Below are positions 6,331 through 32,204 of a stretch of DNA of 64,000 nt, in pieces (the first letter of the stretch is position 1; every line of letters begins with the position of its first letter). The notes below the pieces were generated by a model. It had not been told where the DNA came from. It saw nothing but the letters and a program-made list of their open reading frames with translations, and searched no databases. The DNA comes from Escherichia coli (GTDB taxonomy: Bacteria > Pseudomonadota > Gammaproteobacteria > Enterobacterales > Enterobacteriaceae): assembly GCF_003019035.1 (NCBI RefSeq), contig NZ_CP027447.1; one strand, written 5' to 3'. The position numbers and the translations under genes were made by a program.

Positions 6331-7077
6331 CTACCCGCACACCTCACACCCCGGATTACGCATCAGTTTCATTTCGCGAAACTGACAGGTCATCGCATCG
6401 TACATCACGATTTTTCCGCTGGCCGGTTTGCCATAACCTGCCAGCAGTTTGATCGCTTCCATTGCCTGCAACGAACCAATTACGCCGATCAACGGTGCCA
6501 TCACGCCTGCTTCTACGCAGGTTAACGCGTTCTCGCCAAACAAACGGCTAAGGCAGCGATAGCACGGTTCGCCGTCCTGATAAGTGAAGACCGTGATTTG
6601 CCCTTCCATACGAATTGCCGCGCCGGAAACCAGCGGCACCTTCGCGGCAAAACAGCCTGCGTTCAGTTGATTACGTACTGCAACGTTATCCGTACAGTCG
6701 AGCACCAGATCGTGTTTTGCAATCATCGCAGCAAGTTCAGCGTCATCAAGCAGCGCATTGACTGGCGTAATCGCGATATGTGGGTTGATCCGCGTCAGGG
6801 CGTCACGGGCGGATTCCACCTTCGGTTGCCCGACCGTGGCATCACTGTGCAGCGTCTGGCGTTGCAGATTGGAGAGCGAAACCGTGTCGAAGTCGAGCAG
6901 CGTCAGGTTGCCGACACCGGCGCTTGCCAGATACTGCGAAGCTGCGCAGCCGAGTCCACCAAGGCCGACGACCAGCACGCGGGAATCTTTCAATGCTTCC
7001 TGACCGTCAAAATCAAAACCGCGCAGAATGATTTGCCGGTTGTAGCGCAGCATCTCCTGATCGCTGAGTTCCGCCAT
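6331..7077 (-). CDS. moeB: Molybdopterin-synthase adenylyltransferase
   Basis: 248-aa ORF; ThiF/MoeB dinucleotide-binding motif VLVVGLGGLG and C-terminal CxxC pairs. Confidence 0.93.
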   Translation of the reverse strand: MAELSDQEMLRYNRQIILRGFDFDGQEALKDSRVLVVGLGGLGCAASQYLASAGVGNLTLLDFDTVSLSNLQRQTLHSDATVGQPKVESARDALTRINPHIAITPVNALLDDAELAAMIAKHDLVLDCTDNVAVRNQLNAGCFAAKVPLVSGAAIRMEGQITVFTYQDGEPCYRCLSRLFGENALTCVEAGVMAPLIGVIGSLQAMEAIKLLAGYGKPASGKIVMYDAMTCQFREMKLMRNPGCEVCG

Positions 7078-8312: not shown

Positions 8313-8515
8313 GAAAACACTCCTGCGGAGGCAAAATCGAATTTGCCTATTATGTCAGAAAAACGCCACAGACTGTATGCCACCTCGGGCGTAGCACTGG
8401 CTCCAGCCTTTACATGCCATATCCATCTTTCTATATTCAAAAATTGAATGAGTAATTCATAAAAATTCTGATATTTATAGCAAAAGTGGCGAGCCACCCT
8501 TAATGGACGAATACT

Positions 8516-9481
8516 ATGGGCAAAGCAGTCATTGCAATTCATGGTGGCGCAGGTGCAATTAGCCGCGCGCAGATGAGTCTGCAACAGGAATTACGCTACA
8601 TCGAGGCGTTGTCTGCCATTGTTGAAACCGGGCAGAAAATGCTGGTAGCGGGCGAAAGTGCGCTGGATGTGGTGACGGAAGCGGTGCGTCTGCTGGAAGA
8701 GTGTCCACTGTTTAACGCCGGAATTGGCGCTGTCTTTACGCGTGATGAAACCCATGAACTGGACGCCTGTGTGATGGATGGTAACACCCTGAAAGCCGGT
8801 GCGGTGGCGGGCGTTAGTCATCTGCGTAATCCGGTTCTTGCCGCCCGGCTGGTGATGGAGCAAAGCCCGCATGTGATGATGATTGGCGAAGGGGCAGAAA
8901 ATTTTGCATTTGCTCATGGCATGGAGCGCGTCTCGCCGGAGATTTTCTCCACGCCTTTGCGTTATGAACAACTACTGGCAGCGCGCGAGGAAGGGGCAAC
9001 AGTCCTCGACCATAGCGGTGCGCCACTGGATGAAAAACAGAAAATGGGCACCGTGGGGGCCGTGGCGTTGGATTTAGACGGCAATCTGGCGGCAGCCACG
9101 TCCACGGGCGGAATGACCAATAAATTACCCGGACGAGTTGGCGATAGTCCCTTAGTGGGTGCCGGATGCTACGCCAATAACGCCAGTGTGGCAGTTTCTT
9201 GTACCGGCACGGGCGAAGTCTTCATCCGCGCGCTGGCGGCATATGACATCGCCGCGTTAATGGATTACGGCGGATTAAGTCTCGCGGAAGCCTGCGAGCG
9301 GGTAGTAATGGAAAAACTCCCTGCGCTTGGCGGTAGCGGTGGCTTAATCGCTATCGACCATGAAGGGAATGTCGCGCTACCGTTTAACACCGAAGGAATG
9401 TATCGCGCCTGGGGCTACGCAGGCGATACGCCAACCACCGGTATCTACCGTGAAAAAGGGGACACCGTTGCCACACAGTGA
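8516..9481 (+). CDS. iaaA: Isoaspartyl peptidase / L-asparaginase (Ntn hydrolase)
   Basis: 321-aa ORF; asparaginase-2 family with the autoproteolytic GTVGAVALD threonine region. Confidence 0.92.
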
Positions 9482-11339
9482 TGAACTTGATGCCGGTGAT
9501 GTGCTGGCGGTTGAAAATCTGAATATTGCCTTTATGCAGGACCAGCAGAAAATAGCTGCGGTCCGCAATCTCTCTTTTAGCCTGCAACGCGGTGAGACGC
9601 TGGCAATTGTTGGCGAATCCGGCTCCGGTAAGTCAGTGACTGCGCTGGCATTGATGCGTCTGTTGGAACAGGCGGGCGGTTTAGTACAGTGCGATAAAAT
9701 GCTGTTGCGGCGGCGCAGTCGCGAAGTGATTGAACTTAGCGAGCAGAGCGCTGCACAAATGCGCCATGTGCGCGGTGCGGATATGGCGATGATATTTCAG
9801 GAACCGATGACATCGCTGAACCCGGTATTTACTGTGGGTGAACAGATTGCTGAATCTATTCGTCTGCATCAAAACGCCAGTCGTGAAGAAGCAATGGTCG
9901 AGGCGAAGCGGATGCTGGATCAGGTACGCATTCCGGAGGCACAAACCATTCTTTCACGTTATCCGCATCAACTCTCTGGCGGGATGCGCCAGCGAGTGAT
10001 GATTGCGATGGCGCTGTCATGCCGCCCGGCGGTGCTGATTGCCGATGAGCCAACCACCGCGCTGGATGTCACTATTCAGGCGCAGATCCTGCAATTAATC
10101 AAAGTATTGCAAAAAGAGATGTCGATGGGCGTTATCTTTATCACGCACGATATGGGCGTGGTGGCAGAGATTGCCGATCGGGTTCTGGTGATGTATCAGG
10201 GCGAGGCGGTGGAAACGGGTAGCGTCGAACAGATTTTTCATGCACCGCAACATCCTTATACCCGTGCGCTGTTAGCTGCTGTTCCGCAACTTGGTGCGAT
10301 GAAAGGGTTAGATTATCCCCGACGTTTCCCATTGATATCGCTTGAACATCCAGCGAAACAGGAACCACCCATCGAGCAGAAAACGGTGGTGGATGGCGAA
10401 CCTGTTTTACGGGTGCGTAATCTGGTCACCCGTTTCCCTTTGCGCAGCGGTTTGTTGAATCGCGTAACGCGGGAAGTGCATGCCGTTGAGAAAGTCAGTT
10501 TTGATCTCTGGCCTGGCGAAACGCTATCGCTGGTGGGCGAGTCTGGCAGCGGTAAATCCACTACCGGGCGGGCGTTGCTGCGCCTGGTCGAATCGCAGGG
10601 CGGCGAAATTATCTTTAACGGTCAGCGAATCGATACCTTGTCACCTGGTAAACTTCAGGCATTGCGCCGCGATATTCAGTTTATTTTTCAGGACCCTTAC
10701 GCTTCGCTGGACCCACGTCAGACCATCGGTGATTCGATTATCGAACCGCTGCGCGTACACGGTTTATTGCCAGGTAAAGAAGCGGCTGCACGCGTTGCGT
10801 GGTTGCTGGAGCGCGTGGGCCTGTTACCTGAACATGCCTGGCGTTACCCGCATGAGTTTTCCGGCGGTCAGCGCCAGCGCATCTGCATTGCTCGCGCGTT
10901 GGCATTGAATCCGAAAGTGATCATTGCCGACGAAGCCGTCTCGGCGCTGGATGTTTCTATTCGCGGGCAGATTATCAACTTGTTGCTCGATCTCCAGCGT
11001 GATTTCGGCATTGCGTATCTGTTTATCTCCCACGATATGGCCGTGGTAGAGCGGATTAGTCATCGTGTGGCGGTGATGTATCTCGGACAAATTGTTGAAA
11101 TTGGTCCACGGCGCGCGGTCTTCGAAAACCCGCAGCATCCTTATACGCGTAAATTACTGGCGGCAGTTCCGGTCGCTGAACCGTCCCGACAACGACCGCA
11201 GCGTGTACTGCTGTCGGACGATCTTCCCAGCAATATTCATCTGCGTGGCGAAGAGGTTGCAGCCGTCTCGTTGCAATGCGTCGGGCCGGGGCATTACGTC
11301 GCACAACCACAATCAGAATACGCATTCATGCGTAGATAA
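9468..11339 (+). CDS. gsiA: Glutathione ABC importer, double ATP-binding-cassette subunit
   Basis: Two Walker A motifs (GESGSGKS twice) and two LSGGxRQR signatures; start placed at the TTG at 9468 to give the 623-aa protein (MPHSDELD...), overlapping the iaaA stop. Confidence 0.9.
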
Positions 11340-17281: not shown

Positions 17282-18610
17282 ATGTCCAGAATCAATAAAT
17301 TCGTACTTACAGTCAGTCTGCTGATTTTTATCATGATTTCAGCAGTTGCCTGCGGGATCTACACTCAAATGGTAAAGGAACGGGTGTATGGCCTGAAACA
17401 GTCCGTTATTGATACTGCTTTTGCGGTGGCAAATATTGCTGAATATCGGCGTAGTGTGGCAATTGATCTGATCAACACGCTAAATCCTACGGAGGAACAG
17501 CTGTTGGTTGGCTTACGCACAGCTTACGCCGACTCGCTTTCACCCTCTTATTTGTACGATGTCGGTCCTTATCTGATTTCCAGTGACGAATGTATTCAGG
17601 TAAAGGAGTTCGAGAAAAATTATTGTGCAGATATTATGCAGGTTGTTAAGTATCGACATGTCAAAAATACAGGGTTTATCTCTTTTGATGGTAAAACCTT
17701 CGTCTATTACCTCTATCCGGTAACTCACAATCGTAGTCTGATATTTTTGCTTGGTCTGGAACGTTTTTCTTTACTGTCAAAATCGCTGGCGATGGATAGC
17801 GAGAACCTGATGTTCTCCCTGTTCAAGAACGGTAAATCGGTGACCGGTGATGAATATAACGCTAAAAACGCCATCTTCACCGTTTCGGAAGCGATGGAGC
17901 ACTTCGCCTATTTGCCGACCGGATTGTACGTATTTGCGTATAAAAAAGACGTTTATTTTCAGGTATGTATGTTGATTATTTTCTTTGCTGCATTGGTGGC
18001 AGTGATATCGGGTGCTAGCTGCCTTTATCTGGTACGCAGAGTGATTAATCGTGGCATTGTGGAGAAAGAAGCCATTATTAATAACCATTTTGAACGCGTC
18101 CTGGACGGTGGGCTTTTCTTTTCGGCTGCCGATGTCAAAAAACTCTACAGTCTGTATAACTCGGCGTTCCTGGATGACCTGACCAAAGCGATGGGCAGAA
18201 AATCCTTTGACGAAGATTTAAAAGCCCTGCCGGAAAAAGGCGGTTATTTGTGCCTGTTTGACGTCGATAAATTCAAAAACATTAACGACACCTTCGGTCA
18301 TTTGCTGGGCGATGAAGTGTTGATGAAAGTGGTGAAAATCCTTAAATCACAGATCCCCGTAGATAAAGGTAAAGTCTACCGCTTCGGTGGTGACGAATTT
18401 GCGGTGATTTATACGGGTGGAACGCTGGAAGAGTTGCTATCGATTCTAAAAGAAATCGTTCATTTCCAGGTGGGAAGCATTAATTTAAGTACCAGTATCG
18501 GTGTAGCGCATTCAAATGAATGTCCTACCGTCGAACGCTTGAAAATGCTGGCGGATGAGCGGCTGTATAAGAGTAAGAAAAACGGCAGGGCGCAGATTAG
18601 CTGGCAGTAG
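17282..18610 (+). CDS. dgcI: Diguanylate cyclase (GGDEF)
   Basis: 442-aa ORF; GGDEF active-site motif present (RFGGDEFAV); matches recalled YliF/DgcI. Confidence 0.9.
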
Positions 18611-18623
18611 AATTAGAATAGTG

Positions 18624-18651
18624 TTAGTACCCCTTAATCAAGGGGTACTAA
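18624..18651. terminator. Perfect inverted repeat between convergent dgcI and antitoxin gene (possible bidirectional terminator; no clear U-tract)
   Basis: ttagtacccctt-aatc-aaggggtactaa read directly. Confidence 0.4.
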
Positions 18652-18679
18652 TGAATGTGGTAAATCATTTGCAAACATT

Positions 18680-19009
18680 TTACTTTGCAAAAACTTCCGG
18701 CCCTTTTATTGCCAATGTATTCAAAATACGTAATGCCGGGCCGCTCGGTTTTATTTCATTACGTTCCCATTTCGAGACACTTTCTTTTGACATTCCCATT
18801 GTATGTGCCAGCACGGATTGTGACATGCCGTATCGGGTGCGGATGGCTTTGATCTCTTCACCCGTCATTGATTTGACTTTGGCTATACGGGCGCTGACTT
18901 CACGAGCTTTGACCATGACGGCAATGGCATCAACTTCACTATCAGACATCAGGCCCAGTGCATTCAGTTCCTTTGCATCTTCCAGCATCATTTGTAATTT
19001 ATCGCTCAT
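18680..19009 (-). CDS. HTH (XRE-family) antitoxin, HigA-like
   Basis: 109-aa ORF; C-terminal helix-turn-helix (GMSQSVLAHTMGMSKESVSKWE); overlaps the 3' end of the upstream toxin ORF by 11 nt. Confidence 0.75.
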   Translation of the reverse strand: MSDKLQMMLEDAKELNALGLMSDSEVDAIAVMVKAREVSARIAKVKSMTGEEIKAIRTRYGMSQSVLAHTMGMSKESVSKWERNEIKPSGPALRILNTLAIKGPEVFAK

Positions 19010-19385
19010 TTTTCACCTCAATCAAAAAGCCAGTTTCGATCAAATCCTCTATTTGCTTATTGCTAAAGGCCAGAAATGCATTTGCCATTTTTTTGTAGGC
19101 CGCCAGTTCATCATCTTCGATTTCTTTGGTTCCTTTACTGCTTAGACCACTCTTGGACCAACCATCATAAAAAAACACATGATTTGCTGATTTAAAAAAG
19201 ATAATTGTTCTGGCTCCACCACTCTTTCCTTGTTGGAGGGGTAAACGTTTTTTGATGACACCGCTACCTAAATCAGCCTCCCATATGCCCTGCATCACTT
19301 CTTCAGCGGCAGCCATGAGAACTTTATCGTGAATACCAAGTTTTTTCGTGCTTTGGCTGAATCGTCTTGCCTTATACACACCCAT
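18999..19385 (-). CDS. RelE/ParE-superfamily toxin, HigB-like (toxin-first gene order)
   Basis: 128-aa ORF; KSGGARTIIFF segment resembles HigB/RelE-type killer proteins; paired with the downstream XRE antitoxin. Confidence 0.7.
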   Translation of the reverse strand: MGVYKARRFSQSTKKLGIHDKVLMAAAEEVMQGIWEADLGSGVIKKRLPLQQGKSGGARTIIFFKSANHVFFYDGWSKSGLSSKGTKEIEDDELAAYKKMANAFLAFSNKQIEDLIETGFLIEVKNER

Positions 19386-19399
19386 ACATCCATCCTTGT

Positions 19400-19427
19400 G
19401 GTAATGTTTACTATAGTAACCATTACG
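19400..19427. promoter_or_regulatory. Near-perfect ~28-bp palindrome upstream of the toxin gene (putative autoregulatory operator)
   Basis: ggtaatgtttactatagtaaccattacg; contains the perfect 12-bp palindrome TTACTATAGTAA; 15 bp upstream of the toxin start. Confidence 0.5.
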
Positions 19428-19610
19428 CTTATTTCAAGTAATTGCGATCAAAACTTTAATTTGGTGTGAAAAAGTGAGAGTTGCCTCGAGTACGATACAT
19501 TTTTCTCGATTTATGCGTCAGGGGATTTTGTGCGTAAGGGTAGGACATCGGGAAGGGTAGCAGAGGCAGATCGAAGAACAATATCCTTGTTAGATCTGCC
19601 TTTAAATTAA

Positions 19611-28215: not shown

Positions 28216-29031
28216 TTATTGGTTAAATGGCGCTTCGTGTTTAAGCACTTTATCGATCACATCCAGTACGCCTTCACGGTTATTGGAGCCTGCCCGGTAT
28301 TTTGCCGCTGCGACGACCGCGTTGCCGGCATTTTCCATTGCAAAACTAAAGCCTGCCTGACGCAGCATCTCAATATCGTTACCGCCATCGCCAAAGACCA
28401 CCACTTCGCTGTCGTCTATTCCCCATAATTTCTGCAGTTGGCGAAGGCCATTGGCTTTATGTATGCCGGGGATAATCAGATCGATGCTGCCGTTGCCGGT
28501 GTGGACCGGCACCATAATATCGCCGATGGCCTCATGTAATGCTTTTTGTACTTGTGGAATCAGTTCATCGGAAAGATTCAGACCAAACTTAAAGAAGATA
28601 TCTTCTAAGTTGTCAAAGTTATCGACGTATTCCAGACGGTGATAATACATTTCCGCCACCGTTTTCATGGCATCGTCATATTTTTTGAGGGTATAGGCGC
28701 TATTTTTTCCGCAGGCAATAATTTCCACTTCCGGGCGCGTCAGCAAATGTTCCACGACAGTAGCAAACGCATCCTTCGACAGCTCGCCATTAAAAACATC
28801 TTTGCCTTCGCTCACTACCCAGCCGCCGTTTTCAGCCACAAAGGCTATTTCATTAGCAATTTCCGGAAAGAAAGAGATCAACTGATAATATTGATTCCCG
28901 CTGGCGACCACAAAGCGAATGCCTTGTGCTTTCATTTGCTGATACTGAGCCATAAACCGCTCACGGTTATAGGTTTTTTGATCGCTTAAGAAAGTACCAT
29001 CCATGTCTACCGCAATTAATTTAATGCTCAT
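28216..29031 (-). CDS. ybjI: HAD-superfamily phosphatase (Cof-like; paralog of ybiV)
   Basis: 271-aa ORF; DMDGT and GDGGND HAD motifs; clearly paralogous to the ybiV product in this window. Confidence 0.9.
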   Translation of the reverse strand: MSIKLIAVDMDGTFLSDQKTYNRERFMAQYQQMKAQGIRFVVASGNQYYQLISFFPEIANEIAFVAENGGWVVSEGKDVFNGELSKDAFATVVEHLLTRPEVEIIACGKNSAYTLKKYDDAMKTVAEMYYHRLEYVDNFDNLEDIFFKFGLNLSDELIPQVQKALHEAIGDIMVPVHTGNGSIDLIIPGIHKANGLRQLQKLWGIDDSEVVVFGDGGNDIEMLRQAGFSFAMENAGNAVVAAAKYRAGSNNREGVLDVIDKVLKHEAPFNQ

Positions 29032-30239
29032 CAACTATTCTCCATCGCCGTCTGCGTTTTGGTATCGGGTTTGGCGACGGCTTTCGCGACAATAGCCGCG
29101 AGAATAACCAGCGCCAGTACAACCAGCATTGCACTACGTAATCCATAATGTTCGCCGAGATAGCCCAGTAGCGGCGGCCCGACGAGGAAAGCCAGATAAC
29201 CGGTCGTTGCTACCACACTGACGCGGGTTGGTGCATCGGGGCCGGTATCGCTGGCGGCAGAAATGGTCAGCGGGAAGCCCAGCGAGGCACCTAGTCCCCA
29301 AAGTACAACAGACACTCCTGCGACCCAGGCGCTATCGACAAAAATAATCAGCCCAATACCCAACGCCCCCATTAGTGCACTGGCCCGAACCACGGCAACG
29401 CGACTGTAACGGTCGATGAACCAACCGCCGGTGAAGCGTCCAACGGTCATCCCCAGGGTAAAACCGGCATAAATCAGCGAGCCGGAAGTAGGACTAAAAC
29501 CGTGACCGTCAACCATTAATAAGGGTAACCAGTCGTTGGCAGAACCTTCGGCAAAGGCCATCGCCAGCACCACAACACCAATCAACAGCAACTGGATATC
29601 GCGATAAAAAGGTACGCCTTTTTCGCCATGCTGGGTGCCATCGGCAGCATTTTTGCCCGTACCGTCAGGGATTGCCTGAATGGCGATATAAATAGGTGCG
29701 ATGCCTACCAGCGCCGCCAATAAAATATGCACCGTTGCCGGAACGCCAAAGGCCGTCAGTGCCATCCCGACACCAGCGCCTGCCAGCGTGCCCAGGCTAT
29801 AAAAACCGTGCATCATCGGCAAAACCGTTTTATTCATTTCTCGCTCAACGGCGGCACCTTCAACGTTTATCGCCACTTCCGCAGAACCAAAACTTGCCCC
29901 AAAGACGCCGAGACCAACCGCGAAGAGCAGGGGCGATGTCAGCCAGAGTGCCAGACTTAGTATCATCATCCCGATCAATGCGCAGGACATCGTGACCAGG
30001 ATGACATTACGCGTCCCAAAGCGTTTCACTAACCACGCCGAGCAGAGAATACCGCTCATTGAACCGATCGACAGACCAAAGAGGACTCCACCCATTTCAG
30101 CGATCGAGACAGAAAGAATATCGCGGATAGCAGGCGTACGGGTTGCCCAGGACGCCATTAACAGGCCCGGCAAAAAGAAGAACATAAACAGCGCCCAGGT
30201 TCGGCGTTTCAATGCATTACGTGAAGAATTTACGGTCAT
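29031..30239 (-). CDS. ybjJ: MFS-family inner-membrane transporter
   Basis: 402-aa hydrophobic multi-TM ORF. Confidence 0.88.
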
Positions 30240-30859: not shown

Positions 30860-30963
30860 TAGATAAATTTCAGGCAACAAAAAACCCACTTATCTAAATG
30901 GGTTAATAAAAACAATAAGTTAGATAAAAAACAATAACTTAATGTGGTGGTCAGTGGTGGTTA

Positions 30964-32016
30964 TTATGGGGTAATGCCAACCGCTGCCGCCACTTTGTCG
31001 CCATTTGGTAACGTTGCCAGTGGATTGAAACGGAGCGCCGTTTCCAAATGATCCAGTGCCAGATGTGCATAACGCATAGTCATTTTTATATCGTGGTGTC
31101 CGAGAATTTTTTGTAAGGCCAAGATGTTTCCACCCGACATCATGAAGTGCGCCGCAAACGTATGGCGCAGAACGTGTGTCAGTTGACCGCGAGGGAGAAC
31201 GATAGACGTTTTTTCCATCACGGATAAAAATTGAAAATAGCAGTCTGTGAAGAAATTGAACCCATCGAGCGCCATGATCTCTTCATAAAGCTCTTTACTG
31301 ATAGGGATGCTTCTGTTTTTCTTCCCCTTCGTTCTCACAAAGGTGATTCGGTACTTGGTGACCTGTGAGCGGGTAAGATTGATTGCTTCTCGCCAACGTG
31401 CGCCTGTACTTAGACATATTTTTACCACCAGTGCCAGAATTGGGTTCTGACGTTTGCAGTCAGACAGTAATTCGATGATCTGCTCATGTGTAAGCCATGC
31501 CATTTCCTTTTCTGCGATAGTGAATTTGCGCATCTTCTCTAATGGGTTTGGAAGTGTCCATTCACCCAGGCGGGAAAGTTCTCTGAAAACGCTGCTTAGA
31601 TGGCTTTGCTCCAGGTTAACAGTAACTGGGCTTGCTCCTTTCTTCCATTTTTCACTGAAGTAGATTTCACCAGTAAGGCGTTTATCGCGATAGTGAGCAA
31701 ACATTTTTGAGGTGAGATCGGTTGCAAGGGGATTTCCCAAGGCGTCAACCATCAACAGCAGCTTGTTGTAGACATGCTGTCCGGCAGTAAGAGATTTGCC
31801 ATGTAATTTGAACCATAGCTCAACCATATCTTTCAGTGTCCGACGATCCACTGATTCGCCCAGCCAGGGCTTTGCTTCTATTTCCCCCATGGTGTATCGC
31901 TCGAAGGCCAGTGCTTCGCCTTTGGTGGCGAATTGTTTACGCACACGACGCCCATTACGTCCGGCGGGGTAACATTCGCAAAGCCATTTCCCTGTGGTGA
32001 GTTTTCGTACTGCCAT
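30964..32016 (-). CDS. int: Phage tyrosine integrase (P2 Int-like)
   Basis: Start chosen at MAVRKLTTGKW; C-terminal catalytic region (HVLRHTFAAHFMMSGGNILALQKILGHHDIKMTMRYAHL) carries the tyrosine-recombinase R-H-R-Y signature. Confidence 0.88.
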   Translation of the reverse strand: MAVRKLTTGKWLCECYPAGRNGRRVRKQFATKGEALAFERYTMGEIEAKPWLGESVDRRTLKDMVELWFKLHGKSLTAGQHVYNKLLLMVDALGNPLATDLTSKMFAHYRDKRLTGEIYFSEKWKKGASPVTVNLEQSHLSSVFRELSRLGEWTLPNPLEKMRKFTIAEKEMAWLTHEQIIELLSDCKRQNPILALVVKICLSTGARWREAINLTRSQVTKYRITFVRTKGKKNRSIPISKELYEEIMALDGFNFFTDCYFQFLSVMEKTSIVLPRGQLTHVLRHTFAAHFMMSGGNILALQKILGHHDIKMTMRYAHLALDHLETALRFNPLATLPNGDKVAAAVGITP

Positions 32017-32204
32017 AAAAAATGCCCTCCAGTAGAGAGCATTTTCACTGTATGTATAACCAGTGTCAATGTATGAAATCCTACGACCATACATCTCACT
32101 GAAGCCATAATTAAGTTGGCTATTCTTTTTGCTATGTGAGCATGTAACTTTTGCGGTTAACCTGCGGCTCATTTTTATTTTAGGCGCAGATATAAAAGCA
32201 AAAG

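Follow-up and report, generated by a model that had tools for sequence, protein, structure and literature searches.

The junction of iaaA and gsiA in this Escherichia coli sequence is, with high probability, best explained by initiation of gsiA at the TTG codon at 9468, directed by a Shine-Dalgarno (SD) site at 9455-9461, with the overlap between the two genes as a derived state. The TTG start and the overlap with iaaA are already known and are an ordinary feature, present both in the curated K-12 record and in RefSeq. Since K-12, PGAP and NCBIfam agree, the finding restates existing annotation.

Organization of the junction and existing annotation

Positions refer to the window, that is, the whole stretch of 64,000 nt that was analysed. 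Read directly, the gsiA start is TTG 9468-9470 and the iaaA stop is TGA 9479-9481. The distance from the first base of the TTG to that of the TGA is 11 nt, and the two genes, located on the same strand according to the ORF list, share 14 nt (9468-9481). The junction comprises the following features:

8516..9481, + strand: iaaA (isoaspartyl dipeptidase / beta-aspartyl-peptidase), 321 aa; from the ORF, NF007589, and K-12 and PGAP annotation
9455..9478, + strand: 8-codon C-terminal tail of IaaA, KGDTVATQ; from the junction alignment and iaaA stop positions
9455..9461, + strand: putative gsiA Shine-Dalgarno site AAAGGGG in AAAAAGGGGA, within the coding part of iaaA and separated from the TTG by ~5-6 nt
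9468..9470, + strand: predicted gsiA start codon TTG, equal to the curated K-12 and PGAP start and to the start column in relatives
9468..9481, + strand: iaaA/gsiA overlap, 14 nt; from direct reading, the ORF list and K-12 annotation
9468..11339, + strand: gsiA (glutathione ABC transporter ATP-binding protein, two fused ATPase domains), 623 aa and stop; from NF007613 and Pfam

TTG 9468 is in frame with the ORF 9360..11339 of the ORF list, 36 codons downstream of its beginning (9468-9360 = 108). The raw ORF from ATG 9360 would encode 659 aa, and the product from TTG 9468 has 623 aa. A preliminary description of this DNA had given gsiA as a 623-aa frame from TTG 9468..9470, starting 11 nt upstream of the iaaA TGA at 9479..9481, and had warned that the ORF track carries the frame back to 9360. 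Frame, translation, and curated K-12 and PGAP annotation agree with the first statement, the second follows from the direct reading, with an overlap of 14 nt, and ATG 9360 indeed opens the frame in the ORF list.

Both products belong to well-defined families. GsiA scored 1380.2 bits against the NCBIfam equivalog NF007613 (PRK10261; cutoff 1077), with residues 1-623 of the protein placed on positions 1-623 of the 623-position profile, and it contains two ABC_tran domains and one oligo_HPY domain of Pfam. IaaA scored 712.4 bits against the equivalog NF007589 (cutoff 567; 1-321 of 321), and solved structures of EcAIII match its sequence. The gene order iaaA-gsiA-gsiB-gsiC-gsiD is present, as judged from the ORFs of the window and the annotation of near-identical records.

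The comparison with curated E. coli annotation, which the preliminary description had proposed as a check, yielded the same TTG and the same overlap. In K-12 MG1655 (NC_000913.3), iaaA (b0828) is annotated at 866568..867533 and gsiA (b0829, NP_415350.2) at 867520..869391 with the start triplet TTG; the TGA, the 14-nt overlap and products of 623 and 321 aa are likewise identical, and the differences are limited to strain-level substitutions, such as Asn11 in K-12 versus Asp11 here. A 601-nt segment spanning the junction is 98.8% identical to a K-12 MG1655 record, and of 5426 complete E. coli genomes 5425 contain a match to it at 95-100% identity. A shorter stretch of 33 nt, which begins at the SD and ends just beyond the TGA, is the same in 5233 of these 5425 genomes and differs at one base in 189 and at two in the remaining 3. 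RefSeq PGAP places the gsiA start at the same codon in three strains, one with a 100%-identical junction segment, one with a disrupted gsiA and one with a variant junction.

As a separate observation, gsiA is split in E. coli strain ExPEC (NZ_CM172609.1) into a 510-aa ATP-binding-cassette coding sequence and a partial pseudogene, and the importer ATPase therefore appears disrupted there; the TTG start and the 14-nt overlap are retained.

Identification of the gsiA start codon

An in-frame NTG codon near a stop is by itself a weak sign, as the open frame contains four NTG codons ahead of Val12. TTG 9468 rises above this chance level because of its SD site and its conservation as a start codon. 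Its predicted duplex with the anti-SD sequence has -7.8 kcal/mol at a spacer of 5 nt, so that it is an NTG with an SD 5-9 nt upstream, and such a value is reached by just 1.7% of the 174 NTG triplets in iaaA and gsiA. None of its in-frame rivals has a usable SD. The corresponding values are -1.5 kcal/mol for ATG 9360, -4.8 kcal/mol, the best among them, at a spacer of 0 for ATG 9369, -3.0 kcal/mol for GTG 9450, -3.0 kcal/mol at a spacer of 2 for GTG 9501, and +0.4 kcal/mol for ATG 9534.

Relatives of GsiA were collected in a scan of one genome per species, which returned 80 loci, Salmonella not being among them; iaaA is located directly upstream of gsiA in most of these loci, Betaproteobacteria included. 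The start column was counted in the 22 Enterobacteriaceae loci that align without ambiguity, and the codon homologous to TTG 9468 is a start codon in all 22. It is TTG in eight (Escherichia, Citrobacter, Superficieibacter, Pseudocitrobacter), GTG in nine (Enterobacter, Lelliottia, Phytobacter, Kosakonia, Pluralibacter gergoviae, Siccibacter and others) and ATG in five (Leclercia, a Pluralibacter, Cedecea and two Enterobacter sp.). As ATG, GTG and TTG are interchanged at this site and CTG or GTA never occurs, the site behaves as a start codon and not as a leucine, valine or methionine residue. Furthermore, AAGGAG or AAGGGG precedes the start codon at the same place in the 22 relatives, with a mean anti-SD energy of -8.9 kcal/mol, whereas at +11 the SD is absent (mean -2.5 kcal/mol).

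The same comparison bears on the possibility that translation begins further upstream, at GTG 9450 or at ATG 9360 or 9369, giving a protein of 629-659 aa. The raw ORF suggests as much, with a frame that is open to 9360 and begins with ATG. However, besides the lack of a usable SD at each of these codons (-1.5 kcal/mol, -4.8 kcal/mol with a spacer of 0, and -3.0 kcal/mol), other E. coli and Escherichia sequences have CGC in place of GTG 9450, and the upstream stretch is conserved in the iaaA frame and not in that of gsiA. Upstream starts are impossible in Enterobacter MGH 24, Lelliottia, Cedecea, Siccibacter and others, where the gsiA frame is interrupted by a stop located 3-5 codons ahead of the conserved start codon. 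We consider an upstream start scarcely credible.

The sole serious rival start is GTG 9501 (Val12), which would give a product of 612 aa with an N-terminus like that of the paralogous Dpp/Opp ATPases and would abolish the overlap with iaaA. The match of GsiA to models of paralogs and to solved homologues (DppD, OppD, YejF, Rv1281c) begins only at residue 12-13, and the TTG lacks an initiation signal in the INRI-seq and Ribo-RET data discussed below; both points would suit the shorter protein. Alignment from residue 12 onward would, on the preferred reading of a TTG start, make residues 1-11 a family-specific extension. Against GTG 9501 stand its poor SD (-3.0 kcal/mol, spacer 2) and its replacement by the plain valine codons GTA, GTT or GTC in 7 of the 22 relatives, including an Escherichia and two Citrobacter; in addition, Table S3 of the INRI-seq study calls no alternative gsiA start. 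The residues that this rival would leave untranslated also show coding-type conservation where iaaA does not overlap them: in species of this kind, codons 2-7 of gsiA (PHSDEL) differ pairwise by 77 synonymous and 43 nonsynonymous codon changes. A start at GTG 9501 is thus very improbable.

Searches of the literature and of initiation-profiling tables found neither an experimental GsiA N-terminus nor an in vivo initiation peak, and the literature search found no paper with a statement on the gsiA start codon. Among the rows listed from the TRAINSPOTTER supplement, iaaA has an entry and gsiA does not, and no solved GsiA structure was found that could show whether residues 1-11 are ordered. Judged from sequence comparison, there is little doubt that TTG 9468 is the start of gsiA.

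Origin of the overlap and of the IaaA tail

In regard to the origin of the overlap, iaaA stop positions in the relatives were determined by searching with the C-terminal part of the protein and taking the first stop. IaaA of the sampled Proteobacteria ends in IYR or IYRE followed by the stop, except in Escherichia and Citrobacter, the only sampled genera with the tail KGDTVATQ. In Salmonella, IaaA probably has 313 aa. In the alignment, Enterobacter, Lelliottia, Leclercia, Phytobacter, Superficieibacter and Pseudocitrobacter read gaaTAAggggg or gaaTAAggaga where E. coli reads gaaAAAgggga, the AAA being 9455-9457. The simplest reading of these sequences is that an ancestral iaaA TAA was lost, and the 14-nt overlap looks like a derived state.

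The older layout, as in Enterobacter, Lelliottia, Leclercia, Phytobacter and others, would have consisted of an IaaA end in YRE-TAA, an SD-bearing spacer of 9-13 nt and the gsiA start. The Escherichia and Citrobacter sequences have AAA in place of this TAA, and iaaA there continues for 8 codons to an out-of-frame TGA, crossing the SD, the start codon and the first four codons of gsiA. In this arrangement, the SD AAAGGGG (9455-9461) in the last iaaA codons directs initiation of gsiA at TTG 9468.

The tail lies beyond the Pfam Asparaginase_2 domain, which ends at IaaA residue 310, and its length varies within the species. In E. coli 23CRST011, codon 321 of iaaA is changed from CAG to TAG (equivalent to 9476-9478 of the window), giving an IaaA of 320 aa and an overlap of 11 nt; in gsiA this change is synonymous (His3, CAC to CAT). 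Such a variant is consistent with a tail sequence dictated by gsiA and not by the function of IaaA. The junction shares with overlaps arising by loss of the upstream stop (3' extension) the position of the relatives' TAA exactly at the E. coli AAA, as well as a tail that is outside Asparaginase_2 and variable in length within E. coli. It is not unusual among such overlaps and represents a small, textbook-type case.

Translational coupling between iaaA and gsiA

TTG is a weak initiation codon and would benefit from ribosome delivery. Ribosomes finishing iaaA, which have just crossed the SD and end 11 nt past the TTG, may help initiation of gsiA, either by local re-initiation or by holding the site open against folding. 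Through coupling of this kind, the amount of ATPase subunit made from a weak TTG would depend on translation of iaaA, the first gene of the CysB-regulated iaaA-gsiABCD unit. The preliminary description took coupling to be implied by the overlap. The geometry does fit, but the step from geometry to coupling was inferred and is not a result, and a conserved RBS-masking structure was not found. That translation of iaaA materially boosts gsiA initiation has, in our estimation, about an even chance of being true.

The distance between the iaaA stop and the gsiA start is within ~20 nt in nearly all sampled Enterobacterales with both genes, and the exceptions are two Budvicia loci with gaps of about 200 nt or more. 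The spacings are distributed as follows:

-14 nt: Escherichia, Citrobacter
-8 nt: a Pantoea
-4 nt: Rahnella, two Erwinia
-1 nt: a Pluralibacter, Cedecea, two Enterobacter sp.
+9 to +13 nt: Enterobacter, Lelliottia, Leclercia, Phytobacter, others
+19 nt: Serratia oryzae

Such lasting closeness is seen in coupled gene pairs and equally in compact operons. In a promoter scan, a candidate was detected ahead of iaaA, at 8409-8437, and nothing promoter-like from the start of iaaA to that of gsiA. The literature assigns iaaA and gsiABCD jointly to the CysB regulon and treats them as an operon (PMC3224099, PMC10355420). Like known coupled overlapping pairs (PMC12548453, PMC10666635), iaaA and gsiA are co-directional and in one regulon, with a start close to the upstream stop and a putative SD embedded in the upstream ORF. 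Unlike them, the pair overlaps by 14 nt where overlaps of 4, 1 or 8 nt dominate, and IaaA and GsiA are not known as subunits of one complex. Reinitiation falls steeply with distance, -8 to +6 being counted as the efficient range (PMC10666635), and the -14 overlap is outside this range. On the other hand, phage cases with backward re-positioning over -38 to -50 nt are cited in a review (PMC12548453).

Initiation data offer a further view. In cell-free INRI-seq, the isolated gsiA fragment (-30 onward) gave 0 CPM at the annotated start 867520 in all five replicates (PMC9825163), with the gsiA transcript present at 151 CPM and no alternative site called (PMC9825163 Tables S2-S4). In vivo Ribo-RET gave 0 signal at the gsiA start. 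The INRI-seq silence fits a gsiA start that does not fire alone, and its weight is small; it is weak evidence because iaaA, which as the first gene cannot be coupled, was also missed. The method leaves about 30% of genes undetected (PMC9825163).

Alternatively, the TTG could be the right start with no meaningful coupling; the SD of gsiA would then suffice for de novo initiation, and the overlap of 14 nt would be a neutral by-product of the TAA-to-AAA stop loss. The strong, conserved SD at ideal spacing makes independent initiation possible, and the ancestral-type SD-bearing gap of 9-13 nt is of a kind read as likely independent initiation (PMC10666635). The variable tail length within E. coli, with the 11-nt overlap of 23CRST011, and the absence of a conserved occluding structure also speak for this reading. 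It is weakened by the silence of the isolated gsiA initiation region in vitro, by the stop-start distance of ~20 nt or less in nearly all sampled Enterobacterales, with repeated -1, -4 and -8 forms, and by the gain that a weak TTG initiator would draw from delivered ribosomes. We regard the absence of meaningful coupling as a serious possibility, somewhat short of an even chance. Even with coupling, SD-directed de novo initiation of gsiA probably also occurs.

At the other extreme, the TTG could be unable to recruit ribosomes by itself and receive nearly all of them from iaaA, after termination 11 nt downstream and backward re-positioning onto the SD, which seems doubtful. Within that reading, the stop loss in Escherichia and Citrobacter would have turned an independent junction with a 10-nt gap into an obligatorily coupled one, a step that we consider similarly unlikely.

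In regard to coupling through RNA unfolding, a stable and conserved structure masking the ribosome-binding site was not found in the folds or in the comparison of relatives, and the candidate structures were rejected. The minimum free energy fold of 9400-9540 contains a long-range helix (9437-9446 with 9489-9498) that encloses the SD and the TTG; it has a z-score of -1.59, and visual comparison shows a weaker helix in K-12 and E. albertii and none in Citrobacter, so that it was rejected as a conserved element. A local hairpin, in which 9436-9449 pairs with the SD and the TTG, is the consensus fold of seven Escherichia and Citrobacter sequences; as an unfolding device it was discarded, having -9.9 kcal/mol with z = -0.33 relative to shuffled sequences and no compensatory pairs, and it does not form in Citrobacter, Leclercia or Enterobacter sp. 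Ag1. A terminator-like match on the minus strand (9480-9463) is attributed to chance: no gene on that strand is close to it, and the plus strand gives a weaker match.

Other features of the window

Two more short contacts between same-strand genes were noted in the annotation of the colinear strain FDAARGOS_497. There, moeA overlaps moeB by 1 nt at 7077, and a 1-nt overlap also joins ybjJ and ybjI at 29032, where the raw ORFs of the window overlap by 4 nt (29031-29034). The isolated moeB start was also silent in INRI-seq (PMC9825163).

Relative to K-12, an insertion of ~1 kb is present at 18610-19604, between dgcI and rimO. It holds two minus-strand ORFs, 18999..19385 (128 aa) and 18680..19009 (109 aa), which overlap each other by 11 nt and whose equivalents are named a RelE/ParE-family toxin and a helix-turn-helix protein by PGAP in FDAARGOS_497.

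Colinearity with K-12 ends at 30888, 10 nt into the 3' end (terminator) of rybB (K-12 887979..888057, minus strand), and from there to its end (30889-64000) the window consists of a P2-like prophage. Within 30900-55800, 75% matches Escherichia phage vB_EcoM-813R9 and Klebsiella P2-like phages at ~95% identity, and an integrase-like ORF is located at 30964..32172 on the minus strand. RybB was not found in an Rfam scan of the window. As colinearity stops within the rybB 3' end and RybB is absent from the window, the phage appears to be integrated in the terminator of this sRNA gene, with any reconstituted rybB at attR beyond the end of the window.

Significance of the junction

Beyond annotation hygiene the junction matters little. 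Nevertheless, comparative evidence now backs a gsiA start for which no experimental N-terminus was found, and the junction offers a clean, small example of an overlap apparently generated by stop loss, in which a new protein tail is encoded by the ribosome-binding site of the next gene. If coupling holds, it would explain how enough of the glutathione-importer ATPase is made from a weak TTG under sulfur limitation. If the dependence on iaaA were almost full, translation of IaaA would set the level of the importer ATPase.
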